DNA from: a virus
IMG/VR virus record: IMGVR_UViG_3300027777_000028
Location: 34,377 to 98,376 of that record
Strand: one strand, 5' to 3'
DNA length: 64,000 nucleotides
The notes under the pieces were generated by a model. The model saw only the letters and a program-made list of their open reading frames with translations, ran no database searches and had not been told where the DNA came from. Positions 11,626 to 37,429 of the stretch are shown here, piece after piece. A program made the translations under genes and the position numbers. Within the stretch, counting starts at the first letter, position 1. Each line of letters starts with the position of its first letter.

Positions 11626-13467
11626 ATGGCTGAGAAAAAAATTTCCTATACCGTAAGGGACTTTCAAGGAGTTAGAACTGAATTAATTAATTTTACAAGA
11701 ACTTATTATCCTGATTTGGTTCAAAACTTTAATGATGCAGGTATTTTTTCTGTGATGTTAGATTTGAATGCTGCGGTTACGGATAACTTGAATTATCAAA
11801 TTGATAGAAGTATTCAAGAAACCGTATTACAATTTGCACAACAAAAAAATTCGGTATATAATATTGCAAGAACTTATGGATTAAAAGTTCCTGGACAAAG
11901 ACCATCGGTTGCTTTAATTGATTTTTCAATTACGGTTCCGGCTTTTGGAGATAGAGAAGATTTGAGATATTGTGGTGTTTTACGAAGAGGATCACAAGTT
12001 AATGGTGGAGGACAACCATTTGAAACGGTATATGATATTGACTTCGCGTCACCAATCAATGCTGAAGGGTCACCAAATAGAGTTAAAATACCTAACTTTG
12101 ATTCAAGTGGAAAACTATTAAATTATACAATTGTCAAAAGAGAAGTTGTTGTTAACGGTATTACAAAAGTATATAAAAGGGTAATAACACCAAATGATTC
12201 GAAACCTTATTTAGAATTATTTTTACCTGAAAAAAATGTATTAGGAATTACTAGTGTTTTATTGAAACCTGGAACTCAATATTCAACAATACCAAATCCA
12301 CAAGACTTTTTAACTTTGGGACAAGAAAGATGGTATGAGGTTGACGCATTAGTTCAAGATAGAGTTTTTATTGAAGATCCAACGAAAACTTCAGATCAAC
12401 CAGGTATAAAAGTAGGAAGATATATTACGACATCAAACAAATTTATTTCTGAATATACACCACAAGGATTTTGTAAAATGACGTTTGGTGGGGGAAATAT
12501 TTCTGCTGATGAACAATTAAGACAATTTGCAATTGATGGAAAAGGATTTGATTTGAGTAGGTATACAAACAATTATGCTTTGGGAGCGGCTCTTTCACCA
12601 AATACTACATTATTTGTTCAATATAGAATTGGTGGTGGTTTATCAAGTAATTTGGGTATTAATACAATAAATCAAATTGGTACGGTTTCATTTGCAGTAA
12701 ATGGACCTTCACAAAGTGTTAATAATAGTGTTATTAATAGTTTACAATGTAATAACGTAACTGCAGCAATTGGAGGAGCAAATCCACCAACAACTGAAGA
12801 TGTTAGAAATTTGGTGTCTTTTAACTTTGCAGCTCAAAACAGAGCGGTAACCGTAAATGATTATAATTCACTTATTAGAACTATGCCATCTCAATTTGGG
12901 GCACCAGCAAAAGTTGCTATCACGGAAGAAAACAACAAAATAAGAATTAAAATGTTGTCTTATGACGCTAATGGAACTTTAACAAATGTTGTATCAAACA
13001 CCTTAAAACAAAATGTTGCAAATTATTTATCAAACTACAGAATGATAAATGATTATATATCTATTGAGGCCGCTGATACAATAGACTTGGCTGTCACAGT
13101 TGACGTAGTTTTAGATAATAGTCAAAATCAGGGAGCAATCATTTCAAAAACAATTCAAATTATTACGGACTTCTTTAATCCGTTAGTTAGAAATCTTGGT
13201 CAAAATGTTAATATCTCTGAATTGAGAAGATTAATTCAATCAGAAAATGGAATTGTAAGTATTACAGATGTTTTATTCTTTAATCAAGTTGGAGGTCAAT
13301 ATTCGTCAAGTCAAACTTCTATGCCGTATGCAGATCCTGTTACAAGACAAATTCAACCAACGGCAGATACTTTATTCGCAACACCAACACAAACTTATCA
13401 GATTAGATATCCAAACAAGGATATTAATGTTAGAGTTTTGAACCTGAAATCAGTAAACTTCTCTTAG
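11626..13467 (+). CDS. Baseplate wedge subunit, T4 gp6 / baseplate J-like
   Basis: YTVRDFQ, YRIGGG..SN, AAIGGA, AAQNRAVTVNDY; follows the gp25-like gene. Confidence 0.85.
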   Translation: MAEKKISYTVRDFQGVRTELINFTRTYYPDLVQNFNDAGIFSVMLDLNAAVTDNLNYQIDRSIQETVLQFAQQKNSVYNIARTYGLKVPGQRPSVALIDFSITVPAFGDREDLRYCGVLRRGSQVNGGGQPFETVYDIDFASPINAEGSPNRVKIPNFDSSGKLLNYTIVKREVVVNGITKVYKRVITPNDSKPYLELFLPEKNVLGITSVLLKPGTQYSTIPNPQDFLTLGQERWYEVDALVQDRVFIEDPTKTSDQPGIKVGRYITTSNKFISEYTPQGFCKMTFGGGNISADEQLRQFAIDGKGFDLSRYTNNYALGAALSPNTTLFVQYRIGGGLSSNLGINTINQIGTVSFAVNGPSQSVNNSVINSLQCNNVTAAIGGANPPTTEDVRNLVSFNFAAQNRAVTVNDYNSLIRTMPSQFGAPAKVAITEENNKIRIKMLSYDANGTLTNVVSNTLKQNVANYLSNYRMINDYISIEAADTIDLAVTVDVVLDNSQNQGAIISKTIQIITDFFNPLVRNLGQNVNISELRRLIQSENGIVSITDVLFFNQVGGQYSSSQTSMPYADPVTRQIQPTADTLFATPTQTYQIRYPNKDINVRVLNLKSVNFS

Positions 13468-20984: not shown

Positions 20985-21777
20985 AATAAAAATAGTAAAA
21001 GACGATATAAATAAGTTTGTTAATATACCAATTAACATGCAATGGGATTTTATGGGTCGAGACGATAGTATTTCGGAATATGAAATCGATGCGATTAAAC
21101 AAGTTACAGGTGTAGCGGCAGATTTTGAAATCGCAAGATTTGCTCATAACGTATTTTACAATCAAGATTCTGCGATAAATTATGAATTTAACTTTTATGA
21201 TGATTCACAACCCATAACCGCAAATACAGTTGGAAACTGGTCTTCATCATATTTAAATAACGGATTTTCAGTTCAAGACATTTATTATTTTTCAAAACCT
21301 TTTACAAAGTCTTTTTTCAAACTTGATTTTTATGACACAAAAGAAGAAAAAACACAACAAATATATTTGTCAATTATTCTTCCCGTTCAACAAGGATTAA
21401 CACAAACCGCAGTTTTATCACCACTTGTCCCCCCAGTTGAAATTAAAAAACCAAAAATGGTGTTAGATTATATTGGGGCAGATAAAGAAGGGTTTTTTGT
21501 ATATTGGTTAAGAAGTAGAGATTTTATTGACATATCAACTTTTTTTATGACCGCCAAGTTTTTTGATGGAAGAGAAGGAGTTTTTAAACAAATGACAAAT
21601 ACAAGACAAGATTTAATCACACCTAATAAATTCCAATTCAACAATGAGGACTATTTTTATTATAAGGTGGATTTGGATTATAACAATAAAACTTACGAAG
21701 TGTTTTCGACATCAACAACTCTTAGGGTTGGAGATTCAAACTCACCGATAATTTGGTATGAATATGTTAACCCATAA
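20953..21777 (+). CDS. Putative structural protein (true start probably ATG at 20971)
   Basis: Overlapping, coupled ORF in the structural operon. Confidence 0.6.
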   Translation: MQTQRPMNANRIKIVKDDINKFVNIPINMQWDFMGRDDSISEYEIDAIKQVTGVAADFEIARFAHNVFYNQDSAINYEFNFYDDSQPITANTVGNWSSSYLNNGFSVQDIYYFSKPFTKSFFKLDFYDTKEEKTQQIYLSIILPVQQGLTQTAVLSPLVPPVEIKKPKMVLDYIGADKEGFFVYWLRSRDFIDISTFFMTAKFFDGREGVFKQMTNTRQDLITPNKFQFNNEDYFYYKVDLDYNNKTYEVFSTSTTLRVGDSNSPIIWYEYVNP

Positions 21778-22952
21778 TGGAATTACAAGAATATAAGTTT
21801 ATTGTTTCACCAGAAAATATCAAAAGTGATATTATTTTTGTTAATTATACAGGTGAAACAGATATTACAACAATTATTGATCCGTGTTGTTTAACGGCAA
21901 CAACCACAAGTGCGACAACAACAGGAACAACTGGTGTTTATCTTCCTATGTCGTATGTTTTAAGTGGAAACACAGGAGGAACTTCATTTTTAACAGGTTT
22001 ATCTGTTAACATATTGATAACAGAGTCTGCGGTTGATCTTGGATATTACACTCCCTTTGATGGTTTAATATTACAGGCCGACGTATTAAACAATTTTATT
22101 GTAACCGCAAACACAATAAATCCATATACTTACACATTTTATAATACGTCAGATTTAGAGTTTATTAAGTTTTTACAACTTGTTACATACACATTAGATT
22201 GGGGAGATGGATCACCACCACAGGCGGTTTTGGGAATAACACCTATTTTTCATACGTATCCTACGGCAGATAATAATTATACGATAACCTTGACTGCCAA
22301 CTCGCCTTGGGGAATATCAAAAGTTCAAAAACCGGTTTTAACACCATATAGTGCCGCTACAATACCAAACCCACAAGGATCAATAACTTTTTATCCTGCT
22401 GGTGGATCGTGGTCTGCTAACCCAATAAGTTATGACTATATCTTTACGGGAGATTCAAATACAAACATCAACGACTACTATTCATACAACTACACTTCAG
22501 TTCCTTTTTTAATTACAGGTTTTACAGAATCAACCTTAAATGATTTGGCACAATTTGGACCAAAAATTAATTTGGCAGGAGGAAAATATAAATTGGGAAT
22601 ACAAGTAACAGGAAACACAGGAGGTATTGGTACTTACTATGGGGTTGATCCAACGGGAACTTATAGCGCCTACACAATGAACGGAACGATTTATCACGAT
22701 TATGAAAATTTTACAATTTATTTTACAGACTCATACGGATTAGTTCCTGGTGAATTAGAATTATCAGCAATAACAAAAAATGAAGCACTATTGAATGTTA
22801 TTGACCAACCAGAAATTATAACTAATGTTTATATTGAAAGGGGGAAATACACACCTTTAGAAAATGTTATGAGATTAGGTGAGGTTGATAACATGGGTGA
22901 TTTAGAAAAATACGGATACAAATATTTTACAATAGAAAAAGTATCAACATAA
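21777..22952 (+). CDS. PKD-domain structural protein
   Basis: YTLDWGDGS...HTYP...NYTITLTA PKD signature; Thr-rich. Confidence 0.7.
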   Translation: MELQEYKFIVSPENIKSDIIFVNYTGETDITTIIDPCCLTATTTSATTTGTTGVYLPMSYVLSGNTGGTSFLTGLSVNILITESAVDLGYYTPFDGLILQADVLNNFIVTANTINPYTYTFYNTSDLEFIKFLQLVTYTLDWGDGSPPQAVLGITPIFHTYPTADNNYTITLTANSPWGISKVQKPVLTPYSAATIPNPQGSITFYPAGGSWSANPISYDYIFTGDSNTNINDYYSYNYTSVPFLITGFTESTLNDLAQFGPKINLAGGKYKLGIQVTGNTGGIGTYYGVDPTGTYSAYTMNGTIYHDYENFTIYFTDSYGLVPGELELSAITKNEALLNVIDQPEIITNVYIERGKYTPLENVMRLGEVDNMGDLEKYGYKYFTIEKVST

Positions 22953-23885: not shown

Positions 23886-26872
23886 TGGCAACAAATAAAT
23901 TTACTTGTCCACCTCAAAGTAGTGCGGCAAATCAATTCTCTAACAATTTGGTTGGAGTTCAGTTGGTTACCGGTGGAGGATTAACGCAAGCAAATTTTAA
24001 TTTTACAACAGGTATTTCAGAAAAACAGAATCGAACTTTTACGATTGGAACTTTTTCTGACCCTATCAATTTGCAGTCCATGAATATGGAAAACAATATT
24101 GAATCTGCAGAAATTTTAGCCAACAATTATAGAGTTTATCCAAATTACGATTTATCACAAGTTACAAACTTTACACAATACGGATCTTTGGTTAAAAGAT
24201 TATCAACTTCAGTTACAAAGATCATTAACTTTTTTCCTGCGGGATTGGAAGTTTCTCCAAGTACACCAAAGTTCATAACACAAGAAACCGCAATCAACAT
24301 TTCATACGACTCGGTAGAAAACGACACAACATTTGAAGTTTATTTATCATCAATTCAAAATCCATTTGAAATTGATTATTCTACCAATTCAGAAATAAAC
24401 ATGATGTTTAATGAAATGGAAGTTTCTCCATTACGAAATATGAAATTACAATATAAAAAGTATGTTTTATATGTTAATGGAAATCAATACCCTGTAAATT
24501 ACTTATACCCAACAGATAGTTCATCAACAACATTAAAACTTATTGTAGACGGAAACCCATTTCAAGGAAACCAAATTTCTTATGATTATTTAATTGTTAG
24601 ACCAAGCGATTATGAAACGAACAAAGTTTTTAATTTAGATTTTGATCCGGTCGAAAACTTTTTATTAAATAGACAAATTACACCTGCATATACCGCAACA
24701 TTTACCGTACCTGTGGAACAAGAAAACGGGACATTCATTTTGACCAACGACACGGCAACTTGGCCAAGAGCAGGATTTTGGAATTTGGATATTAGATCTG
24801 GTTCTTTTGACAATTATTTGACAAAAATTAATGATTTTGCATATAATATGGATCAATATACCACAAATATTGTATCTAGATTTTTAACAACAGGTGCTCT
24901 TAAAGAATTTGACACACCTGATCAAAGGTTTGAAAAACTACTTCAAATATACGGAAGAAGTTTTGATGAAACAAAAACATTTATAAGTGCTTTAGGAAAC
25001 ATCAATAGCATTCATTATACAATTCAAAACGATATTCCTTCACAATTATTAAAAAATTTGGCACAAACATTAGGTTGGGTTACGAATTTTTCACCAATAT
25101 CTAATGAAGAACTATTACAGGCTGTGTTCACAACTCAACCAAATACTTTTCCTGGTCTACAAATAGGACAAACACCAGAGGAGATAAATTATCAGTTTTA
25201 TAGAAATTTAATTCTAAACTCGGCATATCTTTTCAAATCAAAAGGGACAAGAAAATCTATTGAATGTTTATTAAGAATGATCGGAGCCCCTGAGGCAATT
25301 ACCGAATTTAATGAATATGTTTATCTTGCCGACCAAAGAATTAATATGAGCGAGTTTAATCAACAATACGCTCAAATTAGTACTGGTACATTATTAACAC
25401 AAATTCCCGTTTATGATACAACCGATGTTTATTCAATTCAGGGAATTTCATATACAGGATTTACAACGACATCAACAAATACAAATGTTCTAACGACAAG
25501 AACCGACTATCCTGTTGATGAATTTGGTTGTCCTAAAATGCCAACACCAACAGAAACATACTTTTTTCAAATAGGAGGTGGATGGTTTGAATCGACACCA
25601 CAACATAGAATGCCTGAATTCGCAGTTCCGACAAATGCGGTTTTTACAGGAAACAATCCAAATTATCAAACACAACTTTTACCTTTTAATTATGGTGAAG
25701 AGTATTTGCAAGTTTATAGACATTTTCCTTATATGGATATGGGTTTTAAATTAAGAAACGTTATTGACAACAAAAAAAGTTGGGTAGACACAAATTCAAC
25801 TTTGAGAACAAGTTTTGATGGGGGATTTAATTCATATTATAATGTTGGAGAAGAATGTTTGGTCTTGAATGTTAAAAATGTTGATATAATGATGAATCCA
25901 GCTCAAGGGTTGGCTTATGATGTTTGGTATATGTCAAACAAATATAATTTTCCAATACCAGAACAAGGATTATTTTATCAACCACCTTCCCCATGTTATG
26001 TACCGAACCCATATCCAAAATTAGGTGGGGTTGATTGGACCACAATTGTTCCAAAACCAAAACAAAAAACTTTCTTTGAATTTGCTCAAACTTTTTGGCG
26101 AAACATGATCAATACAAGAAATCGTCAATTTATTACTGATGGAAAAACAGGAGGTTACCCAACACTACAATCAATATATTGGAGATATTTAGAATCACAA
26201 AAATTAGCAGGAGTGCCAAATGACAACTTTACTTATCAAACTATGATTGATTATGTAAATGGGATGGGAGATTATTGGATTCAAATGATTGAACAAATGG
26301 TTCCAGCAACAACTATTTGGAATACGGGAACAAGATTGGAAAATTCAATATTTCATAGACAAAAATTTGTGTGGAGAAGACAAGAAGGTTGTAAGTTTCT
26401 TCCAATTCCTTGTAAACCTTGTAATCTTACAACACAACTATATGTCTTGGATTGTCCGGTACAACAAGTTACTTGTGGTTTATATCCCTGGTCTACTGAT
26501 CCAAACACAACATCATTTGGTATTGTTTTGGCTCAAACTATGTTAGATTTCTTCACATCACAAGGGTTAGATCCAAATAATTGTCAAATAAATACTATTG
26601 TAAGTAATTGGTTTGTTGATGTGAGAGTGAATGGAACAATATTAACACAATATGGTTTCTTTGAAGGTATAGGAACAAATGGATTCCCAACTAGTAGTCA
26701 ATGGGTGACGGCATTATCCGAAGCTTTCGATGGTTTACTAACCGATGGGTATAGTTATAATATTGATGAAACGGATCAAGAGATTGTCGTATTTAATAAT
26801 AATTGTCAACCAAATTTTGACGAACTCCAAATTAATGTTGGAATAAACTTCGAGGTGTATTGTAACGGATAA
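23885..26872 (+). CDS. Baseplate wedge protein with P2 gpI / T4 gp7-like core
   Basis: LLKNLAQTLGW...YLFKSKGTRKSIECLLRMIG...EY motif. Confidence 0.65.
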   Translation: MATNKFTCPPQSSAANQFSNNLVGVQLVTGGGLTQANFNFTTGISEKQNRTFTIGTFSDPINLQSMNMENNIESAEILANNYRVYPNYDLSQVTNFTQYGSLVKRLSTSVTKIINFFPAGLEVSPSTPKFITQETAINISYDSVENDTTFEVYLSSIQNPFEIDYSTNSEINMMFNEMEVSPLRNMKLQYKKYVLYVNGNQYPVNYLYPTDSSSTTLKLIVDGNPFQGNQISYDYLIVRPSDYETNKVFNLDFDPVENFLLNRQITPAYTATFTVPVEQENGTFILTNDTATWPRAGFWNLDIRSGSFDNYLTKINDFAYNMDQYTTNIVSRFLTTGALKEFDTPDQRFEKLLQIYGRSFDETKTFISALGNINSIHYTIQNDIPSQLLKNLAQTLGWVTNFSPISNEELLQAVFTTQPNTFPGLQIGQTPEEINYQFYRNLILNSAYLFKSKGTRKSIECLLRMIGAPEAITEFNEYVYLADQRINMSEFNQQYAQISTGTLLTQIPVYDTTDVYSIQGISYTGFTTTSTNTNVLTTRTDYPVDEFGCPKMPTPTETYFFQIGGGWFESTPQHRMPEFAVPTNAVFTGNNPNYQTQLLPFNYGEEYLQVYRHFPYMDMGFKLRNVIDNKKSWVDTNSTLRTSFDGGFNSYYNVGEECLVLNVKNVDIMMNPAQGLAYDVWYMSNKYNFPIPEQGLFYQPPSPCYVPNPYPKLGGVDWTTIVPKPKQKTFFEFAQTFWRNMINTRNRQFITDGKTGGYPTLQSIYWRYLESQKLAGVPNDNFTYQTMIDYVNGMGDYWIQMIEQMVPATTIWNTGTRLENSIFHRQKFVWRRQEGCKFLPIPCKPCNLTTQLYVLDCPVQQVTCGLYPWSTDPNTTSFGIVLAQTMLDFFTSQGLDPNNCQINTIVSNWFVDVRVNGTILTQYGFFEGIGTNGFPTSSQWVTALSEAFDGLLTDGYSYNIDETDQEIVVFNNNCQPNFDELQINVGINFEVYCNG

Positions 26873-29058
26873 TGAGTATATCAATTTATAATTTAAACGT
26901 AACGGGAGATTGTAGTAATACAAATTCAGGTAGTGTATTTTTTAACATTACAGGAACAACACCCCCGTTTGCAGTTACCTGTATTACCTCTGGTTGTCCA
27001 TTACCAACATCAGCAGCCACATTAAGTTATTCGGCATCAAGTTTATCAGCAGACACTTATTTTTTACAAATTATTGATGGGGCTTCTAACTCTTATTTAC
27101 AATCAATTTACATATCATCAGGAACAACCGCCACGATTGATTCATTAAATACAAGTTGTGGTTTAGAAAACGGAGAGATTACAGGATTTACTTCGGGTGT
27201 TTATGGTATTGCAACATTTACACTTTATGATGGGGATGATAATTATGTGAGTTCTGCCACAACACCAAACTCAAATTATGTATTTACAAGTTTATCGGCA
27301 GGAACATATTATATTGTTGCTAATGACGGAGGTGGTTGCACAGGAATTACCGCATCTGTCATTTTAACCCCATCAACGGGACTTACATTTGGGGCATATG
27401 TTGTAAATGACGGAAGTTGTATAGGAACTCCAAGTGGAAAAATATTTATAACGGGATTAACACTTCCTGTTTCAGCATATACAATAACTTGGTCTCCAAA
27501 TGTCGGATCACAAACAGGAACAACAATTACAGGATTAACAAGTGGTGTTTATTTGGCGACCATAACAGATCCTAATAATTGCACGACAACAAATTCATTT
27601 ACCGTAAACTCTGTTGGAGCATTAACTTCAGCAGGTTTTATAACAATATCTCAACCAACTTGTTTTTCTAATAATGGGTCAGTTGAGTTTATAATAACAG
27701 GGGGGACTGCTCCATATTTTTTTAGTGGATCATCAGGTCAAGTTGAAATTACTTTTAATGACTCGGTTATTTTTACGGGACTTTCTTCTGGTGGTTATAG
27801 TTTTTTAGTCACAGATGCAGGTCTTTGTACAATTTATGATTCGGTTTCTTTATTAACACCAAACTCGTTTAGTACCGTTGCTGTTAATACAACACCATCA
27901 ACTTGTTCTGTAAATGACGGAACAATACAAGTAATAGTTGATAATGGTTTTGCCACAGAACCAAGTTTATTAATATCAGTGTCTGGTACATCAGGAACAC
28001 AACAAATTGGAACATTAGGAAACCCAAGTCAAACATTTTATGGATTACCAAACGGAACTTATTTGGTTATTGTTGAAACGGCAGGTTGTACATACACTGC
28101 AACAACAAATATAACGTCTATTAGTTTATATACCGTAAGCGCAACAACAACAGGAACTACTTGTGGGTCAAGTAATGGTGTGTTACAAGTTTTAGTGTCC
28201 ACTGGTGGAACATTACCTTATTTATTCACATTAGTTGGACCTTCTTACGCTCCTGTATCAACAACAACACCTGTAGGAACATTTACAAACCTTAGTTATG
28301 GGAATTATGTTCTTACGGTACAAGATTCAGGATCTCCTTCGTGTATTCAAACATTTCCTGTTTATATTAGTTATAGTCAAAATGTGTTTTTCAATCTTTA
28401 TCCCAATCAACCATTCAACGGAAATGACGGGTCAATAACCACAATTATTACATCAGGTGAACCTCCATTTACTTTAACGTGGTCTGGTAATGTTTCAGGA
28501 CAAACAGGGTCTACAATAACAGGTTTAACATCAGGATCTTATTCATTAACCGTAACAGATTCTAGTGGGTGTACGTTAACAAAAACCATAAAGTTATCGG
28601 GAACAAAAAAATATAGTAATTACAGATATTATAATATTTGTGAAAACACATTTGAAGATAGTGGAACAATTACCAAAAGAGATATTAGATCTATGTATTT
28701 GGAAGGATTTTCGGATCTTACAAGTGGAGATACTAATTGTATAATAAATGACGCGACATTTTCAATATATGCTCAAATCGGATCTCAATCTGCTCAAACT
28801 CAGTTTTTTGTTTCAACAGGATCAACCGATTATCCAAGTGATTCACTTTGGGCACAAACAATTACAAACACATTAGATTCGTTTTTAGGTATATCAGGAA
28901 CAACGGTTGATATTATATCAAATAGAATTACGGTTAAAACAACATGCGAAGACATACCAAAAGGATGTATAATTGAACCAATAAATCCATTACAAGATAA
29001 TCAAATAATTGTAAATCTAATTATTGATTACGACATATCTTGTGTTTCGTGTTCTTAA
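26872..29058 (+). CDS. SprB-repeat tail appendage / fibre protein
   Basis: Repeated C...NG.I...TGGTAPY...W...ITGL.SG.Y..TVTD..GC units. Confidence 0.75.
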   Translation: MSISIYNLNVTGDCSNTNSGSVFFNITGTTPPFAVTCITSGCPLPTSAATLSYSASSLSADTYFLQIIDGASNSYLQSIYISSGTTATIDSLNTSCGLENGEITGFTSGVYGIATFTLYDGDDNYVSSATTPNSNYVFTSLSAGTYYIVANDGGGCTGITASVILTPSTGLTFGAYVVNDGSCIGTPSGKIFITGLTLPVSAYTITWSPNVGSQTGTTITGLTSGVYLATITDPNNCTTTNSFTVNSVGALTSAGFITISQPTCFSNNGSVEFIITGGTAPYFFSGSSGQVEITFNDSVIFTGLSSGGYSFLVTDAGLCTIYDSVSLLTPNSFSTVAVNTTPSTCSVNDGTIQVIVDNGFATEPSLLISVSGTSGTQQIGTLGNPSQTFYGLPNGTYLVIVETAGCTYTATTNITSISLYTVSATTTGTTCGSSNGVLQVLVSTGGTLPYLFTLVGPSYAPVSTTTPVGTFTNLSYGNYVLTVQDSGSPSCIQTFPVYISYSQNVFFNLYPNQPFNGNDGSITTIITSGEPPFTLTWSGNVSGQTGSTITGLTSGSYSLTVTDSSGCTLTKTIKLSGTKKYSNYRYYNICENTFEDSGTITKRDIRSMYLEGFSDLTSGDTNCIINDATFSIYAQIGSQSAQTQFFVSTGSTDYPSDSLWAQTITNTLDSFLGISGTTVDIISNRITVKTTCEDIPKGCIIEPINPLQDNQIIVNLIIDYDISCVSCS

Positions 29059-29061
29059 GTT

Positions 29062-29286
29062 ATGGCAAATCAAGTAACCATATATACCATTTCAGGTTTA
29101 ACAACCCCATTTAGTGGATATTGTTGTGATGTATATGGAAATCAATGTTCTTATATTGGAATAATTAGTAGTTTACCAACAACAATAACATTACCAATTC
29201 AATTCAACACAGCCCCTGCGATAGGATTAAAACTAATCAAAGATAATGGATGTGAAAGAATAGAAACAATTAACTGCACCTCATAA
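29062..29286 (+). CDS. Small Cys-containing protein, paralog of 37431-37649
   Basis: Shared pattern Q.TI..ISG..PF..Y.CD....C.YI...P....LP.........K..D/N..C. Confidence 0.7.
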   Translation: MANQVTIYTISGLTTPFSGYCCDVYGNQCSYIGIISSLPTTITLPIQFNTAPAIGLKLIKDNGCERIETINCTS

Positions 29287-29320: not shown

Positions 29321-30301
29321 ATGAAAGAAATTTTATTTGTTTCGGCACAACCTGACGTTCCTTATTTCATTTGGCAAATTAAATTATACGTTAACAATTT
29401 TATTGAAAACGGAATCGACCCAAGTCAAATTCACGTTGTGTTAGGACTTGTTCAAGGAAAAACAAAACCATCAAAAGAATCTGAAGAGTTAAAAAACTTA
29501 AATATAAATATTCATTATTTTGTTGACGAAAGAATAAAAAAACATTACATCCCGTCAATAAAACCATATTTAATTTCAAAATGGATTCAATCAAATACAA
29601 AGTTTGGTGAATTATTCTTCTTACACGATGCAGATATTATTTTTAGAGAACTACCGAACTTTGATCGGTTGTTGAACGATGATGTGAATTATTTATCTGA
29701 AACGATTGGATATATTGGATATAATTATATTATGGATTGTTGTGATAGATATGAAAATCGTCATCCATCTTCAGAAAAAGGTCAATTGATAAAAGAAATG
29801 GCCGGAGTTATTGGTATTGATGTTGAAACAATAAAGTTAAACCAAGAAAATTCTGGTGGTGGTCAATACCTTATAAAAAACACAAGTTGTGAGTTGTGGG
29901 ATAAGATATATAAAGATTCAACCAAACTTTATGATAAAATGATATCATACCAAAGAAGATTTCCAATATCCCCTGGTGAGATACAATTTTGGACAGCAGA
30001 GATGTGGTCCGTTCTTTGGAATTTGTGGTTGTATAATCATCAAACAAAAATAACAAAAGAATTGGATTTTTCTTGGGCAACAGATTCAGTCGATGTGTAT
30101 AATTCTAAACCCATATTACATATGGCAGGAGTTACTGAAAACCTTAAAACTACAAAATTTTATAAAGGGGACTATATTAATATTGACCCAATAACAAAAC
30201 TTAAAGAAACTCCTAATCATTTTGACTATGTCGATGTTAAGAGTTCAACAATTAAATATATTGAGAATATGAAATCTTATATTAAAAAATACGATGTTTG
30301 A
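29321..30301 (+). CDS. GT-A fold glycosyltransferase resembling plant peptidyl-Ser galactosyltransferase / Hyp O-arabinosyltransferase (GT96/GT95-like)
   Basis: YIPSIKPYLISKW, DxD in FLHDADIIFR, WTAEMW, ILHMAG; no signal peptide. Confidence 0.65.
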   Translation: MKEILFVSAQPDVPYFIWQIKLYVNNFIENGIDPSQIHVVLGLVQGKTKPSKESEELKNLNINIHYFVDERIKKHYIPSIKPYLISKWIQSNTKFGELFFLHDADIIFRELPNFDRLLNDDVNYLSETIGYIGYNYIMDCCDRYENRHPSSEKGQLIKEMAGVIGIDVETIKLNQENSGGGQYLIKNTSCELWDKIYKDSTKLYDKMISYQRRFPISPGEIQFWTAEMWSVLWNLWLYNHQTKITKELDFSWATDSVDVYNSKPILHMAGVTENLKTTKFYKGDYINIDPITKLKETPNHFDYVDVKSSTIKYIENMKSYIKKYDV

Positions 30302-30318
30302 TTATTTATAATTATTAG

Positions 30319-32394
30319 ATGATTGAAAATTGCTACATATTATATTCTTGTGACGGAAGTTTTGAACCCATTGTTTCAAACTTTAGTGGGTTGAGCGCAT
30401 ACTCTGAAACTTTTGTTTCAATAGATATTTTAGATTTGGGAGAAACTCCCGATACTTGTTTTTATGTTTTAAGTTTGGGTGAGATGGAATGTTCCCCAAC
30501 TTATAACATAGATGTTAATACTGGAACAACTTGTGTTTGTCAGTGTTATTGTTATTTTATTAGATCGGCAACTCAGACAACAGATGTCACTTATGTTGAT
30601 TGTAATAACACCATAGTTGTGGACACGATTCAAGAAGGGCAAACATATAATATTTGTAGTAAAGTATTTCCACAATTTGACACAGAAACTCAAATACCAA
30701 TTAAATTAACTGATATTTGTCAAAACAATCAGTGTCCACCAACAATACCAACAGTAAAACCACCAAATGAATGTGATGTTATTACTATTTTCCCAATGAC
30801 AATTGAATGTTTAACTTTACAGCCAACAAATGATAAGAGTTTTGATGGATCAACAACTTTGATTGTAACAGGAGGAACACCACCATACACAATTTTTTGG
30901 GAAGTTGGTAGTTTTGCTCCCGCTCTTACAAATTTAGGTGTAGGACAATATAAAGCAACAGTAACAGATTATTATGGTGATTTTACTGCCACCACAACAT
31001 GCGTGTTAACAGCGGACACATTAACATTGTCTGGTATGTGTTTTGCTGTTAGTGGAGTTTCAAATCAAACGACTTTTTATGTTTATAGTGAAAGTTCTGG
31101 TTTAAAAAATGGAAAACCATATTATAAAATTCAATACGGTGTTGAAACCATTGGATATGTTTTTTGGAGTTCAGAATTAAACTATTGGTCTTTTTGTCAA
31201 ACTTTGGAATGTCAAAATATATCAAACTATAACGATTTGATGACAACAACATTTTATCCGTCAGGAGAAACTGGAGATTGGGATTATATTTCTGACTCAC
31301 CATATTATTTATTACAATCTTATGTTGGACCATGTCAAATTCCAACAATACCAAAGGATTTAACTAGTTTATGTGTTACTTTAGTTGTTAGAAGCCCAAA
31401 ACCAGGAGTTGCAACACAAAGTCAACAAATACAATTAGATCCAAGCAACGACGTAAACGGACAACCAAGTTGGTCGTCATCAACAGGACAATACGTTATT
31501 TATTGGAACACAGGATCAACACCTAATCAATGGACGATGACGGGTTATTCAAGTCCTTACGTTAGTTTAATTAATAATGACCCCACATCACCCCCATTAA
31601 GTAATTGGCAAGTTCAAGGATCTCCTGAAGTGTTTAGTATGGCCGTGGCTCAAGGTGAATGTTTGACAAGTTATACAATAAGTGTAAGCGCTTCAGTAAA
31701 TGACGCCGCTTGCGAACAACAAGGAAGTATTACGGTTTCTGCCGTTGGGGGAGTTGCTCCTTACCAATATTCAATTGATGGGGGAGCGTCATACCAATCG
31801 TCACCAATTTTTAATAATTTAAGTCCTGGTATTTATTCAGTTTTTGTAAAAGATACTCAAACAACGGTAGGGTCTTTAACATCAATTCAAGTGAATAATA
31901 TTCTTCCGACAACATATACATTATTATTAAATGTAAACTATGGTAATGGAACTTTTTCAATAACAGCACCTGTTCTTCCAAATGGAGTTACAATTTCTTT
32001 GAATTTAACAATGACATCAACTTTTAGTTATTACCCAAGTACTTTAAGTCCGGCACCGACATATAATAATATAACAACAATAAATGGAACGACACCAATG
32101 ACGTTAACAAATACGACTTCAAGTACAGTTCCACTAACAGGTCCTTGTACTACTGATCTTCCAGTAACTGTGGTACAGACAAGTAAAACATATACAAATA
32201 CTTTAACTTTTACTAGCGGTCAAGTTATTACAGGTTCAACAACTTCAAGTATTATAAATAACCCAACAGGTTTTTGTGAAAAAGCAATAGGGTCATATAA
32301 TCTTTATATGTCAAGTCCTGTTGTGAATAATTGTGAATGTTGTCAAGTTATTTTAAATAACCCAAAATTAAATCCTGTACCACCAATAGTATAA
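30319..32394 (+). CDS. Cys/Thr-rich tail appendage protein with SprB-like repeats
   Basis: TGGTPPYTIFW...LTNLGVGQYKATVTD and GGVAPYQYSIDGG..YQSSPIFNNLSPGIYSVFVKD. Confidence 0.7.
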   Translation: MIENCYILYSCDGSFEPIVSNFSGLSAYSETFVSIDILDLGETPDTCFYVLSLGEMECSPTYNIDVNTGTTCVCQCYCYFIRSATQTTDVTYVDCNNTIVVDTIQEGQTYNICSKVFPQFDTETQIPIKLTDICQNNQCPPTIPTVKPPNECDVITIFPMTIECLTLQPTNDKSFDGSTTLIVTGGTPPYTIFWEVGSFAPALTNLGVGQYKATVTDYYGDFTATTTCVLTADTLTLSGMCFAVSGVSNQTTFYVYSESSGLKNGKPYYKIQYGVETIGYVFWSSELNYWSFCQTLECQNISNYNDLMTTTFYPSGETGDWDYISDSPYYLLQSYVGPCQIPTIPKDLTSLCVTLVVRSPKPGVATQSQQIQLDPSNDVNGQPSWSSSTGQYVIYWNTGSTPNQWTMTGYSSPYVSLINNDPTSPPLSNWQVQGSPEVFSMAVAQGECLTSYTISVSASVNDAACEQQGSITVSAVGGVAPYQYSIDGGASYQSSPIFNNLSPGIYSVFVKDTQTTVGSLTSIQVNNILPTTYTLLLNVNYGNGTFSITAPVLPNGVTISLNLTMTSTFSYYPSTLSPAPTYNNITTINGTTPMTLTNTTSSTVPLTGPCTTDLPVTVVQTSKTYTNTLTFTSGQVITGSTTSSIINNPTGFCEKAIGSYNLYMSSPVVNNCECCQVILNNPKLNPVPPIV

Positions 32395-32422: not shown

Positions 32423-34921
32423 ATGGCTTATATAATTAAAAATACATCAGGTCTGGTAAATACCCGAGTTACTGACACGGGAAGACAAAGATTGTCTGAA
32501 GGTAGATTCAATATCGCTTATTTTGCTATCGGTGATAGTGAGATTTCATACAATCAATTACCTGAGACATATAATCAATCCAATACCGTTGTATTAGAAC
32601 CCCAATTTAATGCTCAAAATAGTTCAGGTGTTCCAGAATCAAATAGACAATATATTAAATACCCATATTTGGTAGATCAAGGACAAACAAATATTTATGG
32701 TATTCCTTTTATGGATTCACAAATCGAATCCGTATTTAATAGGGCCGCGATGAGGGGATTTTTCACAGGAAACACAACCGCTTCCACCGTTGATTGGAAA
32801 GCGTTGGTGAACAATCAATATGTTGTTACACCAAACTATGTTGTAAATATGTCTACTTTGAACGGAACTAACGAAATAAATGTTTATAGATTAGATTGTA
32901 ATGTTCAAAATAATAACACACCACAAATAGGTGATTTTATTACAATTTATTATGATGGGAGAGCAAAAACGGATTGTTCTTGTTCTAATTTTCCTACTCC
33001 AACACCAAGTGCTTCTGTAGGTCAAACACCGACACCAACTCCTACGCCATCATCAACAAATAGTGAACCTTGTTCGTCACCAACACCAACTCCTTCACCA
33101 ACACATACTCCTTGTTTAACACCAACACCAAGTGCTCAATGTCCATTACCACCACCACCTGATTGTTTAAAAGATGTCGTTAGTTGTTTTTCAATTTTAA
33201 CATATAGAATTATTTCGGTGTGTGAAAACAAATTAACATTAGATAGACCAACACCTGATTTTACAAACTTGGCGAGTGATTGTATTGCAAGAACATTAAT
33301 TTATCCACCACAGATGGTTCCGTTATATGATAGTTTTACACCTGAACCACACTGGGCACAAAGTGTTATTGATTTTGAATCAGTTTGTGATACAGATCAA
33401 TTTGATGTAAAAATTTGGAATATGAATATTCCGTGGACTGAAAGTCCGGCTGGTTTAATATCAAATCAGTTCCAAGATTATACGAATTTTGGATCTATAA
33501 ATTATATAGGACAAAAAGAATATTTTGGTTATACAACAAACGCTCAAACATCAACTGATGATGTTTATTATTACAACTCATTTGGTGAAAAACAAGTTGT
33601 AACACCTACAAATCAAAAAGCGATAGCGATTATTCACTACACAAATCAAACAATTGATTTCTTTTATGGTGAAAAGTTTGCTTTACAACCATACGATAGT
33701 CAAAACCCTGAAAATACGCAAGGACAAGCAAGAAACTTCAAATTACATATTCCAACTTTAATGTGGCATAAAAATCCTGAATGTTGTTTTGGTCAAACAT
33801 TTTATGTTGATCCTCCAGGATTTGATGGAAAAAACTTATTTCAAGTTCAATATACAAAATCAAACGTGTCAAATAATATGAACCAACCTGGTTTGAGATA
33901 TTATAACTTATGGGATACATTCGCACAACCAAACGGACTTCCAAGTAGAATAGGAAAAGTTTATCCTGATTCAAAATTAATTATTATTGATGATGAAGAA
34001 ATTGTTGCGGCACTTTCATATAAGTCAAATAGAAATTGGACTTTACCGGCACCTCAAGTTTCTTTATTAACACCAAATACTTGTGGAACATCAAACACTA
34101 CAGGAGTTTTAACTGGCGGTGGTGAAACTTTGTGGGTTACATATAGGTTATCAAATTCATATTTCTTTACCAATTCACTTCATTGTAATTATTACACAAG
34201 TGTTGTGGGAACAGAAAATGTTTGTACACCCGATACACCAAAAAATGTTGCCGTTAGATTCGGAGGAGATTTTCCTTGTTTAGTTCAACCTGGATATTCA
34301 CCAACAACAACAACTACCACTTATTTTCCAAATACAACAACCACAACAACAATAAATCCATATACAACTACTACAACAACATTATGTCCTACTTGTGTTG
34401 TACCAGCAGGGTTTTACTCTAATCAATTTCAGGTATTGGCACAAAAAGTTCCTGTGGGTCAAAGACCTGTTGCGGATAACTGGAAATTAATTGATTTCAC
34501 AGAACAAGCAAGTCAATTTTTTGTAAATGGATATGTAACACAAGAATCACTAACAGCCACCACATTTACTATTACGGCAGAAAATTATTCATCAGCACCA
34601 TATTATAATTTGAATGATTATGTTTCTTTAGTTCCAAAAGGGGACACAGGACCAAACCTTAATTTTGGTGATGAATATTATTTTTATGGTAATTTAGAAA
34701 CTGACATCCAAGCGACAATCTACGAAATGAAGTATAAGATTAATTTATCTTCAAATGAGTTTTTGGTTTCTCAAAACCCAACATGGACTTTTGGTACAAA
34801 ATCATATGTTACTGAAATCGCACTTTTGGATGCTAATGATGATATTCTTGTTATGTCAAAATTACAATCACCTGTGTTAAGACAAGGGATACAACAATAT
34901 GTAATAAAGTTGGATTTTTAA
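32423..34921 (+). CDS. Baseplate / tail-fibre attachment protein with PT-repeat and poly-Thr inserts
   Basis: N-terminal VTDTGRQRL..G.FNIAYFAIGDSE, C-terminal YVTEIALLD...MSKLQSPV, and PTPTPS and TTTTTT inserts. Confidence 0.65.
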   Translation: MAYIIKNTSGLVNTRVTDTGRQRLSEGRFNIAYFAIGDSEISYNQLPETYNQSNTVVLEPQFNAQNSSGVPESNRQYIKYPYLVDQGQTNIYGIPFMDSQIESVFNRAAMRGFFTGNTTASTVDWKALVNNQYVVTPNYVVNMSTLNGTNEINVYRLDCNVQNNNTPQIGDFITIYYDGRAKTDCSCSNFPTPTPSASVGQTPTPTPTPSSTNSEPCSSPTPTPSPTHTPCLTPTPSAQCPLPPPPDCLKDVVSCFSILTYRIISVCENKLTLDRPTPDFTNLASDCIARTLIYPPQMVPLYDSFTPEPHWAQSVIDFESVCDTDQFDVKIWNMNIPWTESPAGLISNQFQDYTNFGSINYIGQKEYFGYTTNAQTSTDDVYYYNSFGEKQVVTPTNQKAIAIIHYTNQTIDFFYGEKFALQPYDSQNPENTQGQARNFKLHIPTLMWHKNPECCFGQTFYVDPPGFDGKNLFQVQYTKSNVSNNMNQPGLRYYNLWDTFAQPNGLPSRIGKVYPDSKLIIIDDEEIVAALSYKSNRNWTLPAPQVSLLTPNTCGTSNTTGVLTGGGETLWVTYRLSNSYFFTNSLHCNYYTSVVGTENVCTPDTPKNVAVRFGGDFPCLVQPGYSPTTTTTTYFPNTTTTTTINPYTTTTTTLCPTCVVPAGFYSNQFQVLAQKVPVGQRPVADNWKLIDFTEQASQFFVNGYVTQESLTATTFTITAENYSSAPYYNLNDYVSLVPKGDTGPNLNFGDEYYFYGNLETDIQATIYEMKYKINLSSNEFLVSQNPTWTFGTKSYVTEIALLDANDDILVMSKLQSPVLRQGIQQYVIKLDF

Positions 34922-34976: not shown

Positions 34977-35582
34977 ATGGCAAAAAACCTTAAAAATTCC
35001 CCAAAAGTGTTAGGATTAGATATTTCTACTCGAACAATAGGATGGGCTCTCTTTGATATTAAAACAAAAGAGTTACTTGAATTAACACACGTTTCACCAA
35101 GACCAAAAATTGATGGTGATGATGATAAAATAAAAGAACTTTTATTGAAGTCTGAAATCTTCGCAGAAAAACTTAAACAATATAAAGGTTTAGGTATTGT
35201 TAGAGTAGTAATAGAAGAACCATTACTTAACTCCAATAATGTTTATACAATTCAAACATTATTACGTTTCAATAGTTTTGTGTTTAAAGAGATATACAAT
35301 ATTTTAGGGATTGTTCCTGAATTCATATCAACATACAACTCACGAAAATATGCATTCCCTGAGTTAGTACAAGAAAACGACAAAAAGAAATTTGTATTAT
35401 TTGGTGGATTACCAAAAGATGTTGATAAAAAAATGATCATTTGGGAAAAAGTTGCAAAACTTGAACCACAAATAAAATGGTTATACACAAAAAACAATAC
35501 TCTCAAAAAAGAAAATTTTGATCAAACAGATGCTTATACTTGTGTGTTAGGGTTTATGAGATTAAAAGAAATCTGGGAATAA
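34977..35582 (+). CDS. RuvC-like Holliday junction resolvase
   Basis: VLGLDISTRTIGW, VIEEP and DQTDAY acidic catalytic pattern. Confidence 0.75.
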   Translation: MAKNLKNSPKVLGLDISTRTIGWALFDIKTKELLELTHVSPRPKIDGDDDKIKELLLKSEIFAEKLKQYKGLGIVRVVIEEPLLNSNNVYTIQTLLRFNSFVFKEIYNILGIVPEFISTYNSRKYAFPELVQENDKKKFVLFGGLPKDVDKKMIIWEKVAKLEPQIKWLYTKNNTLKKENFDQTDAYTCVLGFMRLKEIWE

Positions 35583-35605: not shown

Positions 35606-35637
35606 AAATATCGGTTTTTTAGCCGATATTTTTTTTT
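35606..35637. terminator. Intrinsic terminator between convergent genes
   Basis: AAATATCGG...CCGATATTT stem with T-run. Confidence 0.75.
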
Positions 35638-37429
35638 AACACACAGTACCTAATTGTGTAATTTGGATGTTTTGTGGGTTATTAGTTGTTGGTGTTACAT
35701 TAGAACAAACAATAACCGAACTATTACCCCCCAATGACTCAGATACAGAGTTTGAAATACAATTGCTATATTTGATTGTAATTTTTGATGGACTTAAATT
35801 CGTGACACGATATTGATATTGAACACAAGGTGATGGACTTGGAGTTGGAGTTGGTGTCATAGATGGTGTAGGACAAGGAACTTCCAATGCCGTAGTATAG
35901 AAACCAGAACTACTATTGATACAAGTTTCATAAATAGAATTATCAACCCATTCCATAGTTGAACCAATCGGAAGTTCGGTGTCTAAATATAAGAACGATC
36001 CTGCAACATTTGTTCCATAATTTTCAGCAACCCATCTTACGTTCAAGTTATCCCAATATATTCTATATACCGTTGGATTTGATACATAACTCCAAATATA
36101 AGATAATTTACCGTTTATAAATCCATTTGGAGTTACATTAGTTGTACCACATTCTCCATGAATAACCAAACATTGTGTTACAGGTTCTTGAGGTGATGGT
36201 GTACATTTTAAACAAGAACCATCCAAAGTAGAACCGACTTCATTTGTTAAAGTAATATTATCAACTCCACTTATATTTTCAAATAATCCTTCATAGATTA
36301 CACAATAATTCATTCCGTTAATTATTGCGTTATACACATAATTTTCTTTTGGTGATGTTGATCCAGAAACCAATACAAGATCTGACGTAAAGTATTCAAT
36401 ACCTGTAAAGCAATCACGGAATTTTTTACTATTAGCACATTGTATAATTTCAGAAAACGTATTAAACACAACTTCACCCGAAAAATTACAAGGTCTATCA
36501 ACTTCTGGTGTTGGTGTAGGTGTTGGTGTAAAAGACGGAGTAGGTGTTGGTGTGACCCCTAATGAAGTAACCGCCATTGATACACCACCACATATGTTTG
36601 AAGTCGTTGGAGTTGGTGTGGGGGTTGGTGTTTTTGTAGGAGTTGGGCTAAAACTTGGTGTTGGTGGAATATAACAATCAAAAATTGCTTCAAAATCAAA
36701 ATCAACACAAGGGTTTGTAGTGGTTGTTGTAGTTGTACAAGGCCCAAAATAAACAACACTATCATCAAAATCGGGACAAGTTGAAACACTACCATAAGGA
36801 CCAAATTGATTACAAGGGTCTCCTATGTTTTGTGCTAAACACCATCTTGTTTCACCTGTTGAATAAAATATAAAATATCCGTTTGTTTGACCTGTATAAT
36901 ATGTATATGAACCATACATACCACTATATTGATATGTGTCATCATAGATATTATCGTTCTTAACACAAAAAATTCCAGGACAAGTACAAGTAGAAATTGA
37001 TAATATAGTTCCCGATGAATCAACTTCATAAATTGTAAGACCATCTGAATAAAAAGTATTTGTGGATGGTGTAGTACAACCTGAGTCGATATATACGACA
37101 TTTCCCACAAGTAATCCAGGTCCCCACAAATCAAAAATCAAAGGAGAAATACAAGATAAATTAGGATCTGAAGCGGATGCGAAAGTCCCCAAGAAATTAC
37201 AAGCACATGCAATAATTTCGATAATTTTACCTGATGAATTTGTTGTGTATAAATTAGATCCGTCACTTAAATACGAAGTGCTATATGGTATGGTACATCC
37301 AGAATCGGTATAAAGGAAGTCAAGTAAATCTACACCATCCCCATAAACAGGAGCTGTAAGTGCTGAAAAACACAACGAATAATTTGGACTAGTGTCCACC
37401 GCAAATAAACCTAAATTATTACAAGCCAT
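35636..37429 (-). CDS. Cys-rich PT-repeat protein, putative virion appendage
   Basis: Two tandem ~75-aa N-terminal repeats (CN.LG.FA...Y.DSGCT.P...SDG..Y...SSG.I...C), three PTPTPT blocks and a poly-Thr run. Confidence 0.75.
   Translation of the reverse strand: MACNNLGLFAVDTSPNYSLCFSALTAPVYGDGVDLLDFLYTDSGCTIPYSTSYLSDGSNLYTTNSSGKIIEIIACACNFLGTFASASDPNLSCISPLIFDLWGPGLLVGNVVYIDSGCTTPSTNTFYSDGLTIYEVDSSGTILSISTCTCPGIFCVKNDNIYDDTYQYSGMYGSYTYYTGQTNGYFIFYSTGETRWCLAQNIGDPCNQFGPYGSVSTCPDFDDSVVYFGPCTTTTTTTNPCVDFDFEAIFDCYIPPTPSFSPTPTKTPTPTPTPTTSNICGGVSMAVTSLGVTPTPTPSFTPTPTPTPEVDRPCNFSGEVVFNTFSEIIQCANSKKFRDCFTGIEYFTSDLVLVSGSTSPKENYVYNAIINGMNYCVIYEGLFENISGVDNITLTNEVGSTLDGSCLKCTPSPQEPVTQCLVIHGECGTTNVTPNGFINGKLSYIWSYVSNPTVYRIYWDNLNVRWVAENYGTNVAGSFLYLDTELPIGSTMEWVDNSIYETCINSSSGFYTTALEVPCPTPSMTPTPTPSPSPCVQYQYRVTNLSPSKITIKYSNCISNSVSESLGGNSSVIVCSNVTPTTNNPQNIQITQLGTVC

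Follow-up and report, generated by a model that had tools for sequence, protein, structure and literature searches.

This work concerns a stretch of 64,000 nucleotides (here called the window), corresponding to positions 34,377 to 98,376 of the IMG/VR virus record IMGVR_UViG_3300027777_000028, and in particular the open reading frame (ORF) 29321-30301 on its plus strand, which is predicted to encode a soluble glycosyltransferase (GT) of the GT-A fold (here called the transferase). The source record comprises 98,376 bp and is rated 34% complete. The window contains a series of T4-type genes, encoding a gp32-like single-stranded DNA-binding protein, a UvsX-like recombinase, a DnaB-like helicase, a ribonucleotide reductase, and a gp6-like baseplate wedge protein; further T4-type genes encode a primase and gp46/gp47-like SbcCD, and DNA methyltransferases are also encoded. 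The source is a giant T4-like aquatic phage. A near-complete relative is IMGVR_UViG_3300023174_000042 (referred to here as G001; 272.6 kb, rated 93% complete), whose transferase is 93-94% identical. A megablast comparison of 20 kb of the window to known phages returned no match. The "Moraphages" (PMC12619734) were considered as a phage group for this record and rejected because the T4-type replication and baseplate genes of the window do not fit a group described as separate from T4-like phages.

The transferase gene is located approximately 16 kb into a same-strand run of genes opened by the baseplate wedge gene, and gaps of 35 nt and 17 nt separate it from its same-strand neighbors. The features of this region are given below in window coordinates.

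11626..13467, plus strand: gp6-like baseplate wedge gene, marking the start of the baseplate and fiber operon that holds the transferase gene.
26872..29058, plus strand: SprB-repeat protein of 728 amino acids (aa), 30% Ser+Thr, without a poly-Thr run; a fast-evolving upstream neighbor, 37-99% identical across related loci.
29062..29286, plus strand: small Cys-rich ORF of 74 aa, directly 5' of the transferase gene; matched in 67 of 80 related loci.
29321..30301, plus strand: predicted GT-A glycosyltransferase of family phrog_4417, 326 aa, soluble; assigned from a hidden Markov model (HMM) match, conserved residues, and predicted fold.
30319..32394, plus strand: SprB-repeat protein of 691 aa, 25% Ser+Thr, without a poly-Thr run; directly 3' of the transferase gene.
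32423..34921, plus strand: fiber-operon protein of 832 aa, the main candidate acceptor; Pro-Thr (PT) and poly-Thr blocks, both kept in orthologues of the clade.
32993..33160, plus strand: Cys-bracketed PT block (PTPTPS, TPTPTPTPSST, SSPTPTPSPT) followed by PPPP, residues 191-246 of ORF 32423 (PT block, 191-227; PPPP, 243-246); kept in the alignment.
34298..34381, plus strand: three poly-Thr runs (SPTTTTTT, TTTTTT, TTTTTT) ending before CPTC, residues 626-653 of ORF 32423; kept in the alignment.
34977..35582, strand not listed: RuvC-like Holliday junction resolvase gene (phrog_159, E 1e-6), which closes the fiber operon.
35636..37429, minus strand: Cys-rich, Ser/Thr-rich protein of 597 aa, a second candidate acceptor; convergent with the operon, with orthologues in 61 of 80 related loci.
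36716..36736, minus strand: run of seven Thr (T7) in ORF 35636-37429, which also has four TP-repeat tracts.

Spacing and strand are what point to cotranscription of the transferase gene with the operon, because scans for promoters and terminators around the gene gave site counts no higher than those of shuffled sequences.

The transferase ORF begins with an ATG and encodes 326 aa, in which the following motifs occur in order: YIPSIKPYLISKW (residues 76-88), FLHDADIIFR (residues 100-109, including D103-A-D105), WTAEMW (residues 224-229), and ILHMAG (residues 265-270). The chain lacks a hydrophobic N-terminal segment and begins directly at the first strand of what AlphaFold, run with a homologue alignment, models as one globular domain (predicted local distance difference test [pLDDT], 97.5; predicted template modeling score [pTM], 0.94). 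The initial annotation of the locus had proposed a signal-less 326-aa glycosyltransferase with these four motifs, embedded in a tail operon, and this description was borne out by the chain itself, the DxD-containing GT-A model, and the position of the gene in the baseplate and fiber operon.

No Pfam (E of ≤1) or NCBIfam model matched the transferase, and a PDB sequence search gave no match with either the single sequence or the family profile. In the PHROG collection, the HMM of phrog_4417 (function unknown) matched over nearly its full length, with an E value of 4.5e-65 and residues 6-319 aligned to profile positions 3-290 of 293. Homologues with query coverage of at least 80% occur in 77 INPHARED (cultured-phage) records, and a phmmer search of 1.84 billion cluster representatives retrieved 819 relatives. 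An alignment of 53 diverse homologues shows no variation at D105, H267, K282, or eight further positions and almost none at D103. The model has a single Rossmann-like alpha/beta/alpha domain with the DxD motif after the central strand and a putative C-terminal metal-binding His, as expected of a GT-A enzyme; D103, D105, and H267 in the model fit the DxD...H metal site of such a glycosyltransferase. Two structure searches, VIA-align and Foldseek, agreed on this fold. The top VIA-align matches, each with its value, were as follows.

Glycogenin: 15.1 (root mean square deviation [rmsd] of 3.6 Å over 231 residues).
Skp1 alpha-galactosyltransferase (6mw8): 14.6.
UGGT catalytic domain: 14.4.
LgtC: 14.4.
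WbbM: 13.9.
LARGE1: 13.4.
GlyE (5gvv), from a serine-rich-repeat adhesin pathway: 13.3.
PBCV-1 A64R (2p6w), a capsid glycosylation enzyme: 11.1.

The closest solved folds are thus retaining, Mn-dependent enzymes of the GT8/GT24 type, several of which have protein acceptors. Sequence identity to all fold matches is 8-12%, and the rmsd to the GT8/GT24-type folds is 3.4-4.4 Å, raised by extra helical elements. By three-dimensional similarity, the modeled transferase would belong to the GT8/GT24 clan of retaining GT-A enzymes. By sequence, no Pfam GT8 match was found for the transferase (E of ≤1) or among the matches of the 53 members (E of ≤10), and the family profile matched no solved GT8 chain. 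Since the nearest folds are those of retaining enzymes, a retaining mechanism is suggested for the transferase as well.

Many members of the family also occur as fusions to other sugar-handling domains (a GT60-like N-acetylglucosamine transferase, O-FucT, GT2, GT6, GT7C, GT25, and GT1) and to radical S-adenosylmethionine (SAM)/SPASM and methyltransferase domains. One such protein, P0279 (1915 aa, on a 9.7-kb contig), is 64% identical to the transferase and is fused to GT1, an FkbM-type methyltransferase (PF05050), and GT2; this arrangement would make a single-chain glycan assembly line.

Tracts of Thr and Pro occur in only four ORFs of the 98-kb record, and the two richest of these are located 2-7 kb from the transferase gene. 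The PTPTPS, PPPP, and poly-Thr tracts that the initial annotation had placed in flanking genes do exist, and they reside in ORFs 32423-34921 and 35636-37429 rather than in the adjacent genes. An AlphaFold model of ORF 32423, built from a 34-sequence alignment, was poor (mean pLDDT, 43.7) and was not used. As a separate observation, the first ∼40 residues of this ORF (window positions 32423-32560) are almost invariant across 34 orthologues, and the N terminus resembles the N-terminal attachment region of P2/Mu-type tail fibers.

Conservation within the clade of this phage was surveyed across 80 related viral loci in which the transferase is 65-99% identical. All 80 loci encode a full-length transferase followed by orthologues of ORFs 30319, 32423, and 34977, and inversions of the genes upstream leave this block intact. 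Conservation is higher in the transferase than in its fiber-like neighbors, whose identity drops to 31-42% in loci at greater distance (31-100% for the 30319 neighbor). Tracts of Thr, Pro, and Ser are found downstream of the transferase gene in 75 of the 80 loci. Orthologues of ORF 32423 retain both the Cys-bracketed PT block (residues ∼190-230) and the poly-Thr block (residues ∼626-660), with variable lengths, and in several relatives the gene directly 3' of the transferase gene, the counterpart of 30319, itself bears a tract of T9-T12 (e.g., T10 in locus L044). Among these loci, the resolvase gene 34977-35582 shows 68-94% identity, and inversions do not separate it from the transferase block.

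For distant members of the family, we sampled eight carrier phages of Enterococcus, Lacticaseibacillus, Staphylococcus, Clostridium, Lactobacillus, and Chryseobacterium. All eight encode a poly-Thr tract, usually as a C-terminal tail, and it is borne by the capsid or tail-tube protein or by a small adjacent ORF; the tail-tube protein of phiFL1A, for example, ends in ...GTTTTTSTTTTTTSSTTTTTTTQASSK. In the small carrier phages, the tracts consist of Thr alone and contain no Pro or Ser-Pro motif. The family gene is located among head, tail, or fiber genes in seven of the eight carriers. It lies directly 3' of the annotated major tail protein in phiFL1A, 3' of a small ORF that itself follows the major tail protein in Staphylococcus phage SA2, directly 3' of a 200-aa ORF in the major-tail-protein position in phiCTP1, 3' of the capsid gene in iLp84, 3' of the probable capsid gene in R3.3, and, in VPE25, 5' of the genes encoding head-tail and tail-tube proteins. 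In the eighth carrier, Lactobacillus phage LpeD (Herelleviridae), the family gene adjoins a recombinase; directly upstream of the transferase gene in this phage is orf68 (L088:3578-3982), a 134-aa ORF with 54% Ser+Thr that is annotated as a "glycoprotein" from its likeness to a herpesvirus mucin-like protein.

Five noncarriers, whose whole records were searched for the family gene, provided a comparison: three streptococcal prophages, phiJL-1, and ATCC8014, the latter two belonging to the same genus as carrier R3.3. In all five, clearly homologous capsid and tail-tube proteins are present, and a run of at least four Thr is absent from their ends; the carrier relatives of these phages, one of them of the same genus, have T5-T7 tails.

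The pairing was also recovered by a blind scan of IMG/VR, in which loci were selected solely by the pattern (ACN)9 (118 loci, 1.0 Mb), with the pattern (GAN)9 serving as a control (118 loci, 1.04 Mb). Family members were present in 9 of the 118 (ACN)9 loci versus none of the 118 controls (Fisher P = 0.0033). Each of the nine has a same-strand poly-Thr ORF of 558-2069 codons (stop to stop) whose end immediately precedes the transferase gene. The nine enzymes are 31-37% identical to the window transferase and 30-60% identical to each other. Neither the family nor poly-Thr tags on phages of these hosts are described in the literature that was searched.

The distribution of the family also bears on whether the transferase glycosylates phage DNA bases as a defense against restriction, in the manner of T-even phages. 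This is a role often assigned to phage transferases, and the phage is T4-like and carries DNA methyltransferases. However, the alpha- and beta-glucosyltransferases of T4 have the GT-B fold, whereas the transferase is modeled as GT-A, and the family occurs in 36-40-kb temperate siphoviruses, inside head and tail modules and beside poly-Thr ORFs. We regard DNA glycosylation as extremely unlikely.

The computed fold and conserved DxD...His signature, together with a conserved place in the operon and the pairing of the family with poly-Thr in unrelated phages, lead us to propose that the most probable function of the transferase is O-glycosylation of Thr-rich tracts in virion proteins. As a soluble, metal-dependent GT-A enzyme, it would be made late, together with the baseplate and fiber proteins, and would act in the cytoplasm of the infected cell before or during assembly. 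There it would move a sugar from a nucleotide sugar to the hydroxyls of Thr (perhaps also Ser) in exposed poly-Thr and Pro/Thr tracts, the candidate acceptors in this phage being the 832-aa protein 32423-34921 and the 597-aa protein 35636-37429. The glycan might be elongated by GT2-type enzymes encoded elsewhere in the genomes of relatives, and the benefit could be shielding, stiffening, or adhesion of the fibers. The initial annotation had likewise suggested that the phage O-glycosylates its own tail appendages in the cytoplasm, using an enzyme of a plant-type family; the comparative evidence for Thr/Pro-rich virion tracts favors the first part of that proposal, and the second part fared less well, as described below.

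Several points weigh against this assignment. The two genes adjoining the transferase gene have no poly-Thr run, and the tracts begin 2.7 kb downstream. PT and poly-Thr tracts can also be plain flexible linkers. The co-occurrence is a correlation, and its labels are shared among related sequences. The near-complete relative G001 encodes eight GT2 matches and an NAD-dependent epimerase/dehydratase (E 2e-61), all located >80 kb from the fiber operon; these genes, up to eight GT2 matches in the relatives, could extend the proposed glycan or serve another, unrelated glycan pathway altogether. (The sugar genes of G001 form two islands, at ∼158-170 kb and 258-262 kb, loci L332 and L336.) A sugar on the virions of family carriers is a prediction from sequence comparison. 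Lastly, among 80 family loci in bacterial and archaeal assemblies, 54 lack a T6 run within 6 kb, although the 26 that have one exceed the 8 of 118 found among controls (P = 4e-6).

Protein glycosylation could also take place elsewhere than on the poly-Thr and PT tracts, either at other Ser/Thr sites of the SprB-repeat fibers, in [ST][GA]x[TS] contexts, or on a host protein. Both adjacent ORFs, 26872 and 30319, have 25-30% Ser+Thr and lack poly-Thr, and the nearest folds include enzymes that act on folded or specific proteins (glycogenin and the Skp1 transferase). In addition, the tetrapeptide is 3 to 7 times more common than in residue shuffles in ORFs 21777-22952 (15 observed versus 2.1), 26872-29058 (30 versus 9.3), and 30319-32394 (11 versus 4.1). 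The [ST][GA]xT motifs that had been reported initially for flanking genes are therefore genuinely enriched; many of the copies, however, sit in the recurring ITGxT and TGLTSG contexts of SprB-like repeats, and such repeat-domain contexts lessen the weight of the motif as an acceptor signal. The poly-Thr link, for its part, spans unrelated lineages and was recovered by the blind scan. We consider acceptor sites of this other kind rather unlikely and continue to favor the Thr-rich tracts.

The loci in cellular genomes that lack T6 runs form separate clades, namely, those of Sphingobacteriia and Chitinophagia chromosomes and those of Acidimicrobiia and other metagenome-assembled genomes (MAGs). 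Poly-Thr is therefore not the acceptor for the whole family, a further point against extending the proposed activity to every member. We built a tree of 101 catalytic domains, each labeled by the presence of poly-Thr nearby. The label changes 9 times on this tree versus ∼34 times when shuffled, and none of 500 shuffles gave a value as low. The clades are distributed as follows.

Clade of the window transferase: 7 members, 7 with poly-Thr nearby.
Bacillota phages and prophages: 27 members, 25 with poly-Thr nearby.
Aquatic phage-like contigs: 15 members, 12 with poly-Thr nearby; two of the three exceptions are on contigs of <3.5 kb.
Acidimicrobiia, Saprospiraceae, and Myxococcales: 9 members, none with poly-Thr nearby.
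Sphingobacteriia and Chitinophagia chromosomes: 38 members, 1 with poly-Thr nearby.

The incomplete association in cellular genomes is thus explained by clades that differ in their surroundings. One locus in this set, L341 (CAYGYN010000024.1, 5.3 kb), comes from a MAG of Candidatus Woesearchaeota; its transferase is 64% identical to that of the window, adjoins a poly-Thr ORF, and groups with the jumbo-phage clade, and the contig is probably a phage contig misbinned into an archaeal MAG. In the chromosomal branch, a LanC-like gene is found beside the transferase gene in 26 of the 38 Sphingobacteriia/Chitinophagia loci versus none of the 42 other genome loci (loci L341-L420). Examples are L356:2562-10107 and L358:6004-8126 (Chitinophaga niastensis and Elizabethkingia ursingii), the former locus also containing radical SAM and GT1 genes. 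Judged by its gene neighborhoods, this LanC-coupled branch may function in ribosomal-peptide modification, perhaps in clusters for glycosylated ribosomal peptides. It fits a peptide-directed family, but with poly-Thr acceptors limited to the phage branches.

These contexts also inform a different proposal, in which the acceptor is a nonprotein glycan, such as a host envelope polysaccharide or a lipid-linked sugar, that is modified to alter receptors or block superinfection, while the poly-Thr tracts are unrelated linkers. Glycans are the acceptors of most GT-A enzymes, the genomes of relatives contain many GT2 matches and an epimerase/dehydratase, and the family fusions to GT2, GT25, and GT1 domains are typical of polysaccharide work. 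Yet the transferase has no membrane segment, and its gene is positioned among head, tail, and fiber genes in 7 of 8 carriers rather than among lysogeny or early genes, LpeD being the carrier in which it adjoins a recombinase. Moreover, the family is gained and lost jointly with poly-Thr tails, and its nonphage branch adjoins LanC-like peptide-modifying genes, not polysaccharide genes. An acceptor of this type is accordingly judged unlikely, and decoration of virion Thr tracts remains the preferred reading.

The initial annotation had further classed the transferase as GT95/GT96-like, that is, as related to plant hydroxyproline O-arabinosyltransferases (HPAT, GT95) and peptidyl-serine alpha-galactosyltransferase (SERGT1, GT96). 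As a true member of these families, the transferase would perform extensin-type chemistry, adding arabinose to hydroxyproline or alpha-galactose to Ser beside Pro runs. The motif order ascribed to the plant enzymes is present, and ORF 32423 contains both a PPPP run and PT repeats. GT95 membership was evaluated in 63 family members (53 homologues plus 10 further members) with the Pfam HPAT model PF23452 (cutoff, 23.9 bits). This model gave no match to the transferase at an E value of ≤10, matched 2 of the 53 homologues at E values of at least 0.09, and matched none of the 10 further members, which leaves 61 of 63 members unmatched; HPAT is nonetheless the most frequent, though nonsignificant, Pfam match in the family. 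The model also found no match in the source record or in four carrier phages. These genome searches are weak tests because control genomes were equally unmatched. Similarly weak evidence comes from a profile search of proteins of 651-2000 aa, which gave 15 matches, none named SGT1 or SERGT1 and all of them fused phage or bacterial forms. The sole positive sign of a connection to plants is language-model similarity in the ESM Atlas, where a set whose best cluster has PF23452 on 10% of its members accounts for 19 of the 30 nearest named clusters. The structure searches, which did recover a GT-A fold, placed GT8/GT24-type enzymes closest and returned no GT95/GT96 entry; no GT95 or GT96 structure is known to have been solved.

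The chemistry expected of the plant enzymes was considered separately. A prolyl-4-hydroxylase-type oxygenase (PF13640), which had been suggested as a partner gene, was not found in five clade records, one of them (G001) 93% complete, in a search confined to that one oxygenase family and to the viral records. A hydroxyproline acceptor depends on such a hydroxylase, and on this evidence extensin-type chemistry appears unlikely. The tracts of the small phages, which consist of Thr alone, and the absence of a type II membrane anchor from the transferase argue in the same direction. Membership in GT95 or GT96 could not be shown and, taken as a whole, is very unlikely; "plant-type" should be read as a lead, not a classification.

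Considering the phage and chromosomal branches together, phrog_4417 may be a large family of peptide-directed glycosyltransferases with two settings, a reading to which we give an even chance. In the phage setting, a mucin-like O-glycan coat would be built on encoded poly-Thr or PT tags of capsid, tail-tube, and fiber proteins, in phages of at least Bacillota and Bacteroidota, the smallest being temperate siphoviruses of 36 kb and the largest jumbo T4-like phages of ∼270 kb and more. In the chromosomal setting, the sister branch of Sphingobacteriia and Chitinophagia, accompanied by LanC-like and radical SAM genes, would add sugars to ribosomal peptides.

If this is true, glycosylated virions would be common in nature and not peculiar to actinobacteriophages, with the transferase-plus-tag module spanning phages of lactic acid bacteria, enterococci, staphylococci, clostridia, and aquatic Bacteroidota. 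The surface chemistry of a phage particle would then often differ from what its protein sequences lead one to expect, which would affect antibody recognition and clearance in phage therapy, adherence to mucus, the stability of phages in dairy fermentation, and the reading of cryo-electron microscopy density. A short poly-Thr tag and a single soluble enzyme would also constitute a simple tool for cytoplasmic protein glycosylation. The carriers phiFL1A, VPE25, iLp84, and Staphylococcus phage SA2 are cultivable.

Compared to known systems, the transferase resembles the cytoplasmic protein-modifying enzymes of GT8 and GT24 (glycogenin, the Skp1 transferase 6mw8, and GlyE 5gvv) in its retaining GT-A fold, as judged from the model. 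It differs from them in its 8-12% identity, in having no Pfam GT8 match, and in having no solved relative detectable by sequence profile. Chlorovirus PBCV-1 A64R (2p6w) is, like the proposed enzyme, a virus-encoded transferase for the glycans of a virion protein, in this case the major capsid protein of a eukaryotic virus. A64R builds N-linked atypical glycans; it is a weaker fold match than the GT8-type enzymes and has no sequence similarity to the phage transferase. The plant HPAT and SGT1 enzymes (GT95 and GT96) act on repetitive substrates rich in Pro and Ser and share a similar motif order and the weak HPAT hints described above, and a GT-A-like fold has been predicted for GT95 (PMC8476585). 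Plant HPAT enzymes are Golgi type II membrane proteins with the catalytic domain in the lumen (PMC8012813), whereas the phage transferase is soluble, and no significant HMM match connects the two.

The closest functional parallel is the O-glycosylation of mycobacteriophage virions, reported for Che8, Corndog, and Myrna (Freeman et al. 2023, Cell Host Microbe 31:1216, cited through PMC12619734). Within the literature searched, virion glycosylation has been demonstrated only for mycobacteriophages, in which it alters immune recognition. The hosts of phrog_4417 phages are Bacteroidota and Bacillota, not Actinomycetota; the candidate acceptor tag here is pure poly-Thr or PT repeats; and the tracts of the jumbo phage are internal linkers of fiber proteins rather than tails of capsid or tube proteins. 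In the small carriers, on the other hand, the candidate acceptors form the C-terminal ends of capsid and tail-tube proteins, which is also where mycobacteriophage glycans are reported. In both cases, the phage supplies a transferase that probably decorates proteins of the virion in the cytoplasm, and, as expected of a system of the mycobacteriophage type, the transferase gene of the family described here is linked to virion proteins that carry a dedicated candidate acceptor tail or tract.

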